A DNA stretch of 64,000 bases from a virus (lineage: Duplodnaviria; Caudoviricetes), in the IMG/VR virus record IMGVR_UViG_3300029288_000100, positions 32,001 to 96,000 of that record. One strand, 5' to 3'. Under the pieces are notes generated by a model, which saw only the letters and a program-made list of their open reading frames with translations, made no database searches and was not told the origin of the DNA. Of the stretch, positions 1,206 through 59,761 are shown in pieces. The position numbers and the translations under genes are program-made. The first letter of the stretch is position 1. Every line of letters begins with the position of its first letter.

Positions 1206-2018
1206 ATGCGTACCGACACTGGAATTGACTGGGTGAAAGTAGCTGCGCGCATCATCGAGCGCCGCGAGCAAGTCTACGGCCCCAGATCAGGACCAACTTT
1301 CGCGCGCAAGATAGGCGTGTCCAAACAGACACTTTCGCGATGGGAGCAAGGGGCCACCATCAGAAAACCCGACCTTGAGACGCTGAGGCGCGAGCTCGGA
1401 ATGGCCCCACCGTGGCCCCTCGATGAGGGCGAAGAGACTGAACAACCTATTCTCCAAGCTGACCGAGACTGGCTCAATACCTGGTACAAGGTCCCTAAGC
1501 AGCACCGAATCCACCTGGAGGCGCTGGCCCGCGCGTTACTGCCGGTCGAACTGATCGCTGAACCCACCCAGTGCGAACTCGCTCAGACCGACATCGAGCG
1601 CGCGAAGGAGCGACGCAAGAAGAAGGCACCTGAACCGCCACTCGTGGGCCGCGTCGCCGCGCGCGAGGAGTCAGCACGGGTCGACTTCGCGGCGTGGGAG
1701 GAGTCATCCTCGGAGCTGGCGCGCGTGATCGTCGACGGCAACAGCATGGAGAGCATCTACCCGGACGGCACGGAGCTCCTCGTCAAACGCGCCAATCTCA
1801 ACTACAAGGTCGGCGACATCGTGATCGCGGAGACGGGAGCGCACGGGCTGGTCTGCAAGCGCTACAAGAGGCAGCGACACGGCGTCGTCACCTTGGAGAG
1901 CTGCACGGAGCGCAAGATCGAGCCCATCACCGGACCGCGCACGGAGAATGGGGAGGAGGGCATTGACGGGATCAGTGTGCGAGCCGTCGTCGTCGGAGTC
2001 TACGAGTCCGAACGCTGA
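1206..2018 (+). CDS. CI-like repressor (XRE HTH + S24 peptidase domain)
   Basis: HTH FARKIGVSKQTLSRWEQG; S24 Ser (VDGNSM) and Lys (VCKRY); LexA-like PLVGRVAA segment. Confidence 0.9.
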   Translation: MRTDTGIDWVKVAARIIERREQVYGPRSGPTFARKIGVSKQTLSRWEQGATIRKPDLETLRRELGMAPPWPLDEGEETEQPILQADRDWLNTWYKVPKQHRIHLEALARALLPVELIAEPTQCELAQTDIERAKERRKKKAPEPPLVGRVAAREESARVDFAAWEESSSELARVIVDGNSMESIYPDGTELLVKRANLNYKVGDIVIAETGAHGLVCKRYKRQRHGVVTLESCTERKIEPITGPRTENGEEGIDGISVRAVVVGVYESER

Positions 2019-5968: not shown

Positions 5969-5997
5969 ATCTTAACCGCGGTTAACCGCGGGGTCAA
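5969..5997 (-). promoter_or_regulatory. Sigma-70-type promoter TTGACC-17-TAAGAT with operator CTTAACCGCGGTTAAC
   Basis: Read directly; same motif as at 55849, 59735, 60775 and 60852. Confidence 0.8.
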
Positions 5998-57050: not shown

Positions 57051-57880
57051 GCGCGCCCCCTGTCCTCCGCGGGAGGGAGGGCCCCTGGATGGTGCTTCGC
57101 CACGATCTCGTTCAGTCGGTCGACCAGGTCCGGCCGCAGAAAGGTCAGATGCCCATTGCTGTTCTTGAAGCACCGGATGGAGATCAGGTCCGCAATCGCC
57201 ACCGGCTCAACCGGGAACCGGGTGTCGAAGGTGATCACCTCCCGGAGCGCGTTGTAGGCGCCCTGCCGGTGATCGGGCTCGGGCCTGCCGTCGAGGACCG
57301 ACATCACGCGGATCAGGTCGTCGAGCCCGTTGCAGCCCGCCAAGCTTGGCCCAGTGTGATACTTCTGCCCGCCGCTGCCCCAGACCTCCACGATGCGCCG
57401 CAGGACAATCCGCTTACCGAAGAGGCGCGGGTTGTTGGTCTTGTAGTCCCAGCTCAGGTGACGAAAGACCTCCACCACCCCGCGCTCGAACATCTCCCGC
57501 CGGGCGGCGAAGAGCTCCTTGAAGGTTTCCTCGATGTTCTCCTGGGTAAGCGCCGGCACCCGGCGCTCGTAGATGTCTTTGGTCCACTGCTCGCGCGCTT
57601 TGGCGTCCATGAAGGTCCTCAGGCCGCTCTTGTTCATGAGGAAGTCCCAGGCCGTCGCGTCCACCCGCTTGACCAGCGCCTCGACATCACCCGGGAGGTA
57701 GGCGTGCACCCGCTGGCACTGCAGACTTGGCACCGCGTCATCTGACCCGAAGGCCGCCTCGCTCAACTCGCCCACCTCGATGAGCAGTGTAGCGATCTGG
57801 CGTAGCCGCTCTGCAATCGCGTTGCGCTGCGCCAGCAGATTGCTGATGGAGACGGACGGCACCAAGTCGGTCGCGTGCAT
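57047..57880 (-). CDS. DUF4942 domain protein
   Basis: AWDFLMNKSG...MD, FERGVVEVFRHLSWDYKTN, FGKRIV, FKNSNGHLTF. Confidence 0.85.
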   Translation of the reverse strand: MHATDLVPSVSISNLLAQRNAIAERLRQIATLLIEVGELSEAAFGSDDAVPSLQCQRVHAYLPGDVEALVKRVDATAWDFLMNKSGLRTFMDAKAREQWTKDIYERRVPALTQENIEETFKELFAARREMFERGVVEVFRHLSWDYKTNNPRLFGKRIVLRRIVEVWGSGGQKYHTGPSLAGCNGLDDLIRVMSVLDGRPEPDHRQGAYNALREVITFDTRFPVEPVAIADLISIRCFKNSNGHLTFLRPDLVDRLNEIVAKHHPGALPPAEDRGRA

Positions 57881-58794
57881 GCGTTCACCTCATGCCTTCT
57901 TCAGCCCGCAGTCGAGGAGGTGCTGGGCCAGCTTCTCTCGTACCTCGAGGTTCTGGGTCAGCCACTGGCAGGCGGCGGCCCGACCCTGGCCGAGCTGCGT
58001 CTCGTTGAGCGCGTACCAGGAGCCGCTCTTCTTGATGACGCCCGCCTCGAGGCCGAGGTCCACTATCTCGGCCTCCCGGTGCACGCCCTTACCGTAGACA
58101 ATGTCGAACTCAGCCTCGCAGAAGGGCGGGGCGAGCTTGTTCTTGACCACCTTGACCAGTGTGCGGTTTCCGATCACCTGGTCTCCCTGCTTGATGGCGT
58201 CGATGCACCGGATGTCCATGCGCACCGAGGCGTAGAACTTGAGCGCAGTGCACACTGCAATCGAGCCGTATGTGACACCGATTTTCTGTCGCGTCTGGCG
58301 GATGAAGAGGATGCTCGTGCCCGTGCGGAAGGCAGCGCCGGTGAGCTTGCGCATCGCCTGGCTCATCAGCCGCGCCCGCAGCCCCATATGGGTGTCGCCC
58401 ATGTCGCCCTCGAGCTCGGCCTTGGGCACCAGCGCCGCGACCGAGTCCACGACCACGATGTCGACCGCGTTCGACTTCACCAGCATATCGGTGATCTCGA
58501 GCGCCTGCTCGCCGTGGTCCGGCTGAGACAACAAGAGCTCCTCGACGCGGACGCCCAGCTTGTGGGCGTAGCCCACGTCGAGCGCGTGCTCGGCGTCGAT
58601 GAAGCCGCACACCCCGCCGCGCCGCTGCACCTCGGCGATGGCGTGGAGGGCCAGGGTGGTCTTGCCCGAGGACTCGGGGCCGTAGACCTCGATCAGCCGG
58701 CCGCGGGGGAGCCCCCCGGTGCCCAGCGCCAGGTCCAGGGTGAGCGACCCTGAGGGGAAGGTCTCTACTGCCGTCGCGTTCATGCGTTCACCTC
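57870..58794. repeat. 22-bp direct repeats GTCGCGT(G/T)CATGCGTTCACCTC at 57870-57891 and 58773-58794 bracketing recA
   Basis: 21 of 22 bases identical, read directly; each copy is SD + ATG + first codons of a gene. Confidence 0.85.
57890..58783 (-). CDS. recA: RecA homologue, N-terminally truncated, with an altered L2 loop
   Basis: [50 protein letters not shown]; start MNATAVETF at 58783 (SD GAGGTGA). Confidence 0.92.
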
Positions 58795-58797
58795 GTC

Positions 58798-59463
58798 TCA
58801 AGGCAGAAGGTGCAGGGCGGCATCCCGGAGGTACCGCTCCTCCCCATCCACCGCCACGTGGTAGACCCAGGTCACCGCTCGGTGCGGGCACCCGGCCGCG
58901 AAGAGCGCGCGCTCTGCCACCCCGCGGAGCCAGTCCCTTTGAACCGAGCGCTCGACGTCCGCGCGCTCGATCCGCCCCCACTCGCCTGGCCGCCTCTCGA
59001 GGTCCGCGGTTGTGACGCAGCGGAAGCACTCTCCCACCCAGCACGTCTCCCAGCCGCCGCGCCCGAGCTTGTCCACCGTCCAGGTCGCCGCCGGCGGAGT
59101 CAACCCCTGCAGCGCGGTCCGGGCCACCTCCGCCAGTTCGCGAGCTCGTTCCTCTACGTGCGCCGCCATCAGGCGCTTGGTCTCTGCGCGCGCCTCGCGC
59201 TCCGCCGCCTTGACCGCCGGGAAGTCGACCCCTGGGAGAAGCCCCTCAGCGAGCAACTTGGGGCCGCAGCCAGACCCCACCGTCAGGGAGCCCCCACCCG
59301 GTCGCTCGAGCAGCGTCCAGACCACCGCGTGCCGCCTCCCGCACCGCACGCACTCAGGGAGCTCGCACGTGTCGACCGGTAGCCGCTTCCCGGAGTCCCA
59401 GTCAATCGGGCGGACGTCGTGGATCTTGAGCAGCTCGTAGGTCTTGCCAGCGTCGAGCGTCAT
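58798..59463 (-). CDS. Hypothetical protein with Zn-finger-like motif
   Basis: CVRCGRRH...VGSGC. Confidence 0.65.
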
Positions 59464-59732: not shown

Positions 59733-59761
59733 ATCTTAACCGTGGTTAAGCAAAAAGTCAA
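59733..59761 (-). promoter_or_regulatory. Promoter TTGACT-17-TAAGAT with operator CTTAACCGTGGTTAAG (59735-59750)
   Basis: Near-consensus sigma-70 boxes; near-identical to 60773-60801. Confidence 0.85.

Follow-up and report, generated by a model that had tools for sequence, protein, structure and literature searches.

The recA' locus

The subject of this report is a truncated recA gene, recA', carried on a stretch of 64,000 nucleotides (the window) that comprises bases 32001–96000 of a 110,098-bp IMG/VR virus record (IMGVR_UViG_3300029288_000100); coordinates of the minus-strand recA' gene are window positions. The phage comes from a landfill metagenome and is described as temperate, and its genome is 67% GC and complete as judged by CheckV. 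The features at the recA' site are as follows.

57890–58783, minus strand: recA' open reading frame (ORF), encoding the 297-amino-acid protein P0001, which reads M-N-A-T and then corresponds to RecA residues ~36 to ~325 (E. coli numbering)
58773–58794, minus strand: left copy of a 22-nt direct repeat, GAGGTGAACGCATGAACGCGAC, which gives recA' its Shine-Dalgarno (SD) sequence, ATG and codons 2–4 (M-N-A-T)
57870–57891, minus strand: right copy of the 22-nt repeat, GAGGTGAACGCATGCACGCGAC, forming the native SD, ATG and codons 2–4 (M-H-A-T) of the DUF4942 gene and overlapping the recA' stop codon
57047–57880, minus strand: DUF4942 gene (PF13708, 3e-49), downstream of recA'

P0001 is a bacterial RecA core with its C-terminal domain, both by sequence and by predicted fold. 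It matches the Pfam RecA family (PF00154, 9e-112) over profile positions 27–261 of 262 and RecA_C (PF21096) at 1.3e-17, and its AlphaFold model, whose predicted local distance difference test (pLDDT) value is 77 and drops just in loops L1 and L2, gives template modelling (TM) scores of 0.85–0.88 against solved RecAs. Residue numbers given below are those of E. coli, taken from an alignment of P0001 with 197 RecAs and an E. coli-type RecA reference.

Both ends of the protein are missing. Met1 of P0001 aligns at E. coli D32 with true homology beginning at V37/E38, such that helix A and strand beta-0, the polymerisation elements, are absent; the stop codon of the upstream gene at 58798–58800 lies 14 nt before the recA' ATG. 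An initial annotation made by reading the sequence had placed the start near residue 33–37 with the N-terminal helix gone, in good agreement with this alignment. No remnant of a recA N-terminus is present in the whole 110-kb genome, as searched by tblastn with the N-termini of the relatives. At the other end, P0001 has none of the C-terminal tail, 15–65 residues long in the relatives, that in E. coli RecA is acidic. The frame had also been described as unbroken with a strong SD; the ORF is open and the SD is there, but an open frame is weak evidence alone at 67% GC, since the opposite strand of recA' is also open for 292 codons.

The recA' phage is a singleton, known from one contig, one sample and one sequencing run. 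A search of sequencing runs, in which pieces 95–99% alike to the stretch were counted, found it in one DNA run, with no RNA run among those listed as containing it. An assembly chimera can be ruled out as the source of recA', because independent Logan contigs of the one run that contains it span both recA' junctions and the depth of the Logan pieces over recA' and its junctions is 17–19x, equal to that of the phage; a separate 211-nt Logan piece (58217–58427) spans the loop L2 lesion described below with zero differences.

Cellular origin and capture

The proteins nearest to P0001 among 5.8 billion searched are full-length RecAs of 344–363 amino acids that share 77–80% identity, followed by those of Deltaproteobacteria and Myxococcales at 65–74%. 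The nearest relatives for which DNA is available have recA beside a ComM-type Mg-chelatase gene (comM-recA) in ordinary chromosomal contexts, and in a codon tree the phage recA' is sister to the nearest four cellular recAs. By these full-length chromosomal relatives and the position in the tree, recA' is a host gene gained by the phage, namely a piece from the interior of a recA of cellular, Myxococcota-like type. A scan of GTDB genomes for the donor gave only 60–66% matches with generic patterns.

The site of insertion is well defined. The repeat pair GAGGTGAACGCATG[A/C]ACGCGAC brackets recA' exactly, with the two copies 903 nt apart and identical at 21 of 22 positions; the repeat has two copies in the window and none elsewhere, with 0.00 expected by chance. 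DUF4942 homologues elsewhere begin M-x-x-T-D-L-V-P-S, and therefore the right copy of the repeat is the original. The recA' stop codon was made at the right (3') junction and overlaps the DUF4942 ribosome site, which suggests translational coupling of the two genes. This footprint indicates that recA' was gained by a template switch or by insertion at microhomology, in which a short stretch of the target was duplicated. In the codon alignment one relative reads ATG CAC GCC exactly where recA' starts and another reads GCA GGT GAC near its end, and both junctions could have formed via chance microhomology. Because the footprint is that of an inserted internal fragment, the N- and C-terminal truncations were both fixed by the capture event, as opposed to later sculpting. 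The junctions keep an unusually clean record of the birth of a gene, through microhomology capture and the copied translation start of a neighbour.

Residues changed and retained

The sites within the retained core at which P0001 departs from its relatives include the following.

58243–58262, minus strand: L2 lesion, in which the 20 nt of the relatives (AC CTG ACC ACG ACC GGC GG) have become 11 nt (TT GCA GTG TG), from a codon alignment with six cellular relatives
58298–58300, minus strand: N193R codon, AAC to CGC by two adjacent base changes; the Asn is invariant in the 197 RecAs
58157–58207, minus strand: changes in site II and the co-protease groove, R227C (CGC to TGC), G229D (GGC to GAC) and R243L (CGG to CTG)

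First, the L2 lesion is a net in-frame loss of 9 nt (3 codons). The normal form of the loop, GSNLTTTGGTALKF, is altered by T208V and T209C, G211 and G212 are gone, and three residues are deleted in all; with N193R added, P0001 does not have the intact L2 of a bacterial RecA. Each altered position of this primary single-stranded DNA (ssDNA) site (N193, T208–T210 and G211/G212) is 98–100% conserved in the 197 RecAs. The three-residue deletion and the loss of G211 and G212 had been recognized in the initial annotation, which also counted E207 as lost; this last is no lesion, since the source clade has L, V or I at the position, though the Ala of P0001 is unique. Secondly, in site II and the groove R226, K232 and K245 are kept, and R227C, G229D and R243L, read earlier by eye, stand in the alignment with the 197 RecAs. 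Thirdly, there are changes that had escaped the earlier reading: N193R, K256C (usually K or R), a Q-to-R change at position 167, and the loss of the whole acidic C-tail. R227C, G229D and K256C are GC-to-AT transitions and R243L is a G-to-T change.

The L2 lesion makes a 6-bp inverted repeat, GCAGTG-TG-CACTGC, that contains an ApaLI-type GTGCAC palindrome. The inverted repeat suggests a quasi-palindrome template switch, and the lesion is probably a single event of this kind that is in frame by chance. Two other sources of altered sequence were rejected. A mosaic patch from a divergent recA is ruled out by the even synonymous identity between recA' and its relatives, which is flat at 0.65–0.75 from codon 31 onwards and does not fall over the lesions, and gene conversion of L2 from the recombinase that the phage encodes elsewhere is ruled out by the 25% identity of the two proteins and a loop without similarity.

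Much of the rest of the protein is as in RecA. The ATP site is kept (Walker A and B, E96, D100 and Y103), and the ATP residues including Q194 and K248/K250 are those of the consensus of the 197 RecAs; the earlier statement that Walker A/B, E96, Q194, R196 and K248/K250 are intact agrees with the same alignment. Also kept are the DNA contacts R169, Q194, R196 and K198, the interface residues K216, F217 and R222, and the groove and trans-acting lysines K232, K245, K248 and K250.

Several of the changed residues contact partner proteins. In cryo-electron microscopy structures R227 and I228 contact the cleavage regions of LexA and UmuD, L2 inserts into the repressors, and K232, R243 and K245 form the acidic-patch docking site for LexA, UmuD, lambda CI and DinI (PMC9926225); G229 and R243 are LexA contact points by electron microscopy (PMC3834820). 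Both sources agree with the initial annotation, which stated that G229 and R243 mutants impair repressor cleavage, in that the residues hit are important, and because of these contacts a filament with P0001 subunits should be a poorer co-protease.

The same residues bear on the possibility that P0001 is a core-only recombinase or annealase that anneals strands independently of filaments, as Sak4 does. Phage proteins consisting of a RecA core alone and having annealing activity exist (Sak4, PMC5928155), and a fused RecA dimer pairs DNA without filaments (PMC6237804). However, P0001 has lost the L2, N193 and site II residues on which DNA binding and pairing depend, a RecA monomer unable to polymerise neither binds ssDNA nor hydrolyses ATP (PMC6237804), and the phage already has a recombinase; we regard such a role as very improbable.

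Distribution of the lesions

The lesions are not placed at random. There are 143 columns that are at least 90% conserved in the 197 RecAs, and P0001 deviates at eight of them, all in the end of L1, in L2, or in the site II strand; the 113 conserved columns outside these ranges hold zero P0001 changes, where ~19 events would be expected at the rate of the DNA face. With columns assigned to functional classes the clustering has P = 1.6e-6 per column, or ~4e-4 for 5 independent events, and a class-free scan gives P = 0.0145. With 13 rare residues in all, P0001 stands no higher than the 95th percentile among normal RecAs.

Pairwise comparisons give nonsynonymous divergences (dN) of 0.155–0.164 between P0001 and its four nearest relatives and of 0.071–0.093, about half, among the relatives, at similar synonymous divergence (dS). 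In a two-ratio codon model the dN/dS ratio (omega) is 0.064 on the phage branch versus 0.032 in the background (P=0.14), and omega=1 is rejected (P=2e-4). This comparison, which had been proposed with the initial annotation, cannot separate a decoy from decay, and it says little on the time spent in the phage because the branch is mostly the cellular history of an unsampled donor.

Since the lesions are confined to the DNA- and LexA-binding face, uniform neutral decay of the whole gene is disfavoured. Either the DNA face would have been hit by positive selection or the core would have been held by purifying selection, and either way the protein would be made and would matter to fitness. The pattern is compatible alike with an optimised inhibitor and with a merely detoxified fragment, and cannot distinguish the two.

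Operon, neighbouring genes and other phage functions

Other features of the phage that bear on recA' are listed here.

59733–59761, minus strand: promoter-like TTGACT-17-TAAGAT with an overlapping operator, CTTAACCACGGTTAAG; sigma-70-like and the likely operon start
58798–59463, minus strand: upstream 221-amino-acid gene of a phage-only hypothetical family (ESM Atlas clusters 44–100% viral)
G000:C1:22520–23668 (L002:769–1917), outside the window, minus strand: the phage's own RecA-family recombinase, 382 amino acids; Pfam RecA 5e-11; phrog_97, UvsX-like
1206–2018, plus strand: CI/LexA-like repressor, 270 amino acids, with a helix-turn-helix and an S24 peptidase domain

The likely operon order is orf87, the 221-amino-acid gene, recA' and DUF4942, and no terminator-like site was found between 61000 and 55400. 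The initial annotation had called recA' early-expressed; what the sequence offers is just the sigma-70-like promoter and the operator within it at 59761–59733, CTTAAC-N4-GTTAAG. This palindromic operator has five copies in the window (at 5971, 55849, 59735, 60775 and 60852; 0.01 expected by chance), of which two overlap TTGACT-17-TAAGAT promoters, and the set resembles a regulon of the phage that is distinct from CI.

The 221-amino-acid protein contains Cys-rich motifs and matches nothing in Pfam or PHROG, and homologues of its gene occur in two other viral contigs (L009 and L010) without an adjacent recA. In tblastx synteny comparisons with related phages, which are noisy in high-GC DNA, this upstream gene alone is shared. 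A related 105-kb viral contig (G001) has the 221-amino-acid gene and no true recA, its sole recA-like gene being a homologue (L015) of the divergent recombinase of the recA' phage. The DUF4942 protein matches the C-terminal part of phrog_6263 (DNA methyltransferase, 1.8e-18) and, weakly, KleA/KleC (PF17383, 7e-4); nothing informative was found in the literature on DUF4942.

The phage's own recombinase is 25% identical to P0001. The CI-like repressor keeps the catalytic Ser (GNSME) and Lys (VCKRY) of its peptidase, and has V-A-A-R in place of the usual Ala-Gly cleavage motif, so that RecA-stimulated self-cleavage may be lost. A recombinase of its own and an altered repressor are circumstantial signs that would fit a phage independent of host RecA.

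RecA genes in other viruses

The initial annotation had raised the prospect of other phage RecAs with the same lesions, and none turned up in a phage collection (64% identity at best), in IMG/VR (54% at best) or among the 5.8 billion proteins. The region of the N-terminal helix, N193 and the Gly-Gly of L2 are all retained in some 50 RecA genes from other viral contigs. The best PHROG match of recA' is phrog_97 (1.6e-74), although recA' is not a resident recombinase of the phrog_97 type, being a fragment taken from a host and broken in L2; the true phrog_97 member is the separate recombinase gene listed above.

The only genes of a comparable kind that turned up belong to a second, unrelated phage-like lineage of 48% GC (L103:10001–10753 and L104:1–842), which encodes two related host-type RecA cores without the C-terminal domain. 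In one, P0121, residues ~11–40 have been lost by an in-frame deletion between IST repeats, and T73M and E96G are present; in the other, P0126, the N-terminal helix is present upstream and is cut off by a 44-nt tandem duplication. The pairwise dN/dS of the two genes is 0.17–0.22. These genes show that phages of this host group repeatedly take up recA and lose its arm, and the copies look at least partly like decay; they lend support to both of the principal readings of recA' weighed below.

Possible role of P0001

In a RecA filament, the N-terminal arm of each protomer packs on the core of its neighbour. Truncation of the RecA N-terminus abolishes filament growth, and in a published non-polymerising RecA one side has lost 29 N-terminal residues and the acceptor side bears mutations at C116/S117/Q118, S117 and Q118 being acceptor residues whose substitution blocks polymerisation (PMC6237804). 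P0001 has no arm and keeps the neighbour-facing residues equivalent to S117, Q118, P119, D120, G122–I128, D139, E123, G165, S172, R176, K216, F217 and R222; both the arm-accepting surface and the core–core ATP interface are thus kept, with only G212 lost there. Such a protein could therefore join a filament at a host arm and yet not recruit the next protomer.

The origin, architecture and lesions of recA' and the non-random placement of the lesions are shown by the sequence, whereas binding to host RecA, its inhibition and any gain to the phage are inferred. We tentatively favour, as the best reading, a dominant-negative cap or poison of host RecA filaments. The proposed course of events is as follows. 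A fragment of a host (Myxococcota-like) recA would have been captured into a phage accessory operon at the DUF4942 start, which was duplicated such that the fragment was translated. After capture, the primary ssDNA site (L2 and N193) and part of the site II and LexA groove (R227, G229 and R243) would have been lost. P0001 would dock on host RecA protomers or filament ends via the N-terminal arm of the host protein and, offering no arm and holding no DNA, would terminate or poison the host filaments. Host recombination and SOS signalling would be damped, with the phage relying on its own UvsX-like recombinase and on a CI-type repressor without the usual Ala-Gly site.

A fuller proposal makes the stolen piece of host recA an anti-RecA weapon, an arm-less, DNA-blind and ATP-competent protomer. 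By capping host filaments it would shut down recombination and SOS, and with these the induction of rival prophages or RecA-dependent defences, in a phage that uses its own UvsX-like enzyme and a repressor that RecA may not cleave; this proposal we hold more loosely still. Truncated recA products lacking N- or C-terminal parts are said, in the title of a 1992 paper by Horii et al. (pmid 1731063, cited in PMC11377839), to inhibit wild-type recA. The literature yielded no paper describing a phage-encoded truncated RecA inhibitor. The inhibitor proposed in the initial annotation fares well in its anatomy, which fits a non-polymerising, DNA-binding-defective core that could still dock on normal RecA and whose lesions are confined to one face, and less well in that no other phage has the lesions and that a recently captured passenger is a serious rival.

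Docking was also modelled. The complex of P0001 with the closest cellular RecA scores 0.56 versus 0.00 for the best control, which lends weak support to binding; contact agreement between runs is at least 84% and the pLDDT of the partner at least 82. In calibration, 58 of 80 solved complexes and two of 110 mismatched pairs reached the mark, and at scores of 0.60 or below there are only 7 of the 80 solved complexes together with both of the passing mismatches. RecA–RecA complexes have already been solved, so the score may reflect memory of a like structure as opposed to binding.

The modelled docking on cellular RecA would also suit an accessory subunit that resembles a Rad51 paralogue, with a core that binds a filament end or partner, uses ATP and not DNA, and modulates (stabilises, loads or redirects) either host RecA or the UvsX-like recombinase. 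The intact ATPase site and both intact core interfaces, the loss of the DNA loops, and the presence of a phage recombinase are consistent with such a subunit; nevertheless, P0001 is just 25% identical to that recombinase, which makes a shared interface unlikely, phages have no conserved family of proteins of this kind, and no evidence separates stimulation from inhibition. We consider an accessory subunit unlikely.

Returning to the dominant-negative cap, a number of observations weigh against it. G212 lies in the active RecA–RecA/DNA interface (PMC3164682), and its loss may also weaken the docking of P0001. The gene is a singleton: no second lesioned copy that would point to maintenance by selection across phages is present in the collections searched, a region-restricted search of the 5.8 billion proteins for the L2 segment reached no more than 73% and met with normal L2 loops throughout, and the related 105-kb contig lacks recA'. 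Capture appears to have been recent, as seen from the near-identity of the repeat copies and from a GC content at third codon positions (GC3) of 0.913 in recA' versus a phage mean of 0.835, and recent capture leaves little time for selection to show. Chance microhomology that included an ATG would explain the in-frame start of recA' without selection. Several of the lesions are GC-to-AT changes of an ordinary kind in codons for Arg or Gly, omega on the phage branch is without a significant rise, and the copies in the 48% GC lineage, in so far as they are decaying, tell in part in the same direction.

These observations are much as expected if recA' is a recently captured passenger, that is, an accident of illegitimate recombination without adaptive role, whose persistence reflects its young age and a reading frame that delivers ribosomes to the coupled start of DUF4942, with DNA-face lesions that reflect drift or detoxification of a harmful ssDNA-binding fragment. 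A singleton gene absent from a related phage, nearly identical repeats, host-like GC3, a GC-to-AT mutation spectrum at CGC and GGC codons, and a branch omega without significant rise all favour this. So do the overlap of the recA' stop with the DUF4942 SD, since a nonsense or frameshift mutation in recA' could be polar on DUF4942, and the second lineage, in which P0121 is without T73 and E96 and P0126 is frameshifted by its 44-nt duplication. Against this stand the absence of the ~19 events that pure drift predicts in the other 113 conserved columns, the in-frame L2 event, and the two base changes that N193R takes. A simple deletion between the 22-nt repeats would cleanly excise a useless insert, yet the insert has been kept. 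Detoxification, for its part, would still require a protein that is produced and has a bearing on fitness. We put a young passenger, perhaps a detoxified one, only slightly below a dominant-negative cap in likelihood, and it is on its own account a doubtful proposition; what probability remains falls to something outside these four readings.

If P0001 is a filament cap, then target-derived dominant negatives arise in the wild by the cutting down of the host's own RecA, and the protein would be a ready-made tool to block SOS in the phage's host group. If it is a passenger, recA' is a neat case of host-gene capture and nothing beyond.

Comparison with known systems

New here are the origin of recA', its repeat-flanked insertion, the recombinase that the phage has of its own, the singleton status and the lesion pattern. 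Delta33RecA is a laboratory truncation of E. coli RecA, reportedly described by Mikawa in 1995. It and the non-polymerising RecA of PMC6237804 have the same loss of residues ~1–33 as P0001, with the arm removed and filament growth prevented; P0001 differs in being natural and phage-borne, in also lacking the acidic tail, and in its extra lesions in L2, N193 and site II, and its inhibition is putative.

Phage RecA- and UvsX-like recombinases (phrog_97, e.g. the mycobacteriophage 'RecA-like DNA recombinase') share the RecA family and phage encoding with P0001. They differ in that the ~50 viral RecAs keep the helix region, N193 and Gly-Gly, whereas recA' is a recent host fragment beside a separate recombinase. 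In eukaryotes, Rad51 paralogues and BRC-repeat mimicry control assembly through proteins that imitate the recombinase fold or the polymerisation motif and attach to filament ends or to protomers. These are ancient conserved families with demonstrated functions, in contrast to P0001, which is a single recent derivative.

Sak4 of phage HK620 is, like P0001, a phage-encoded RecA core without an N-terminal arm (PMC5928155). The Sak4 family is, however, distant and conserved, binds DNA and has no RecA C-terminal domain, whereas P0001 shares 77–80% identity with true RecA, still has that domain, and is damaged in its DNA loops. PsiB of F-type plasmids and RamA/RamT of ICEBs1 are mobile-element inhibitors of RecA filaments and SOS that affect resident prophages (PMC11841131); their sequences are unrelated to RecA, whereas P0001, as a candidate inhibitor, is a crippled version of the very protein that it would act on.

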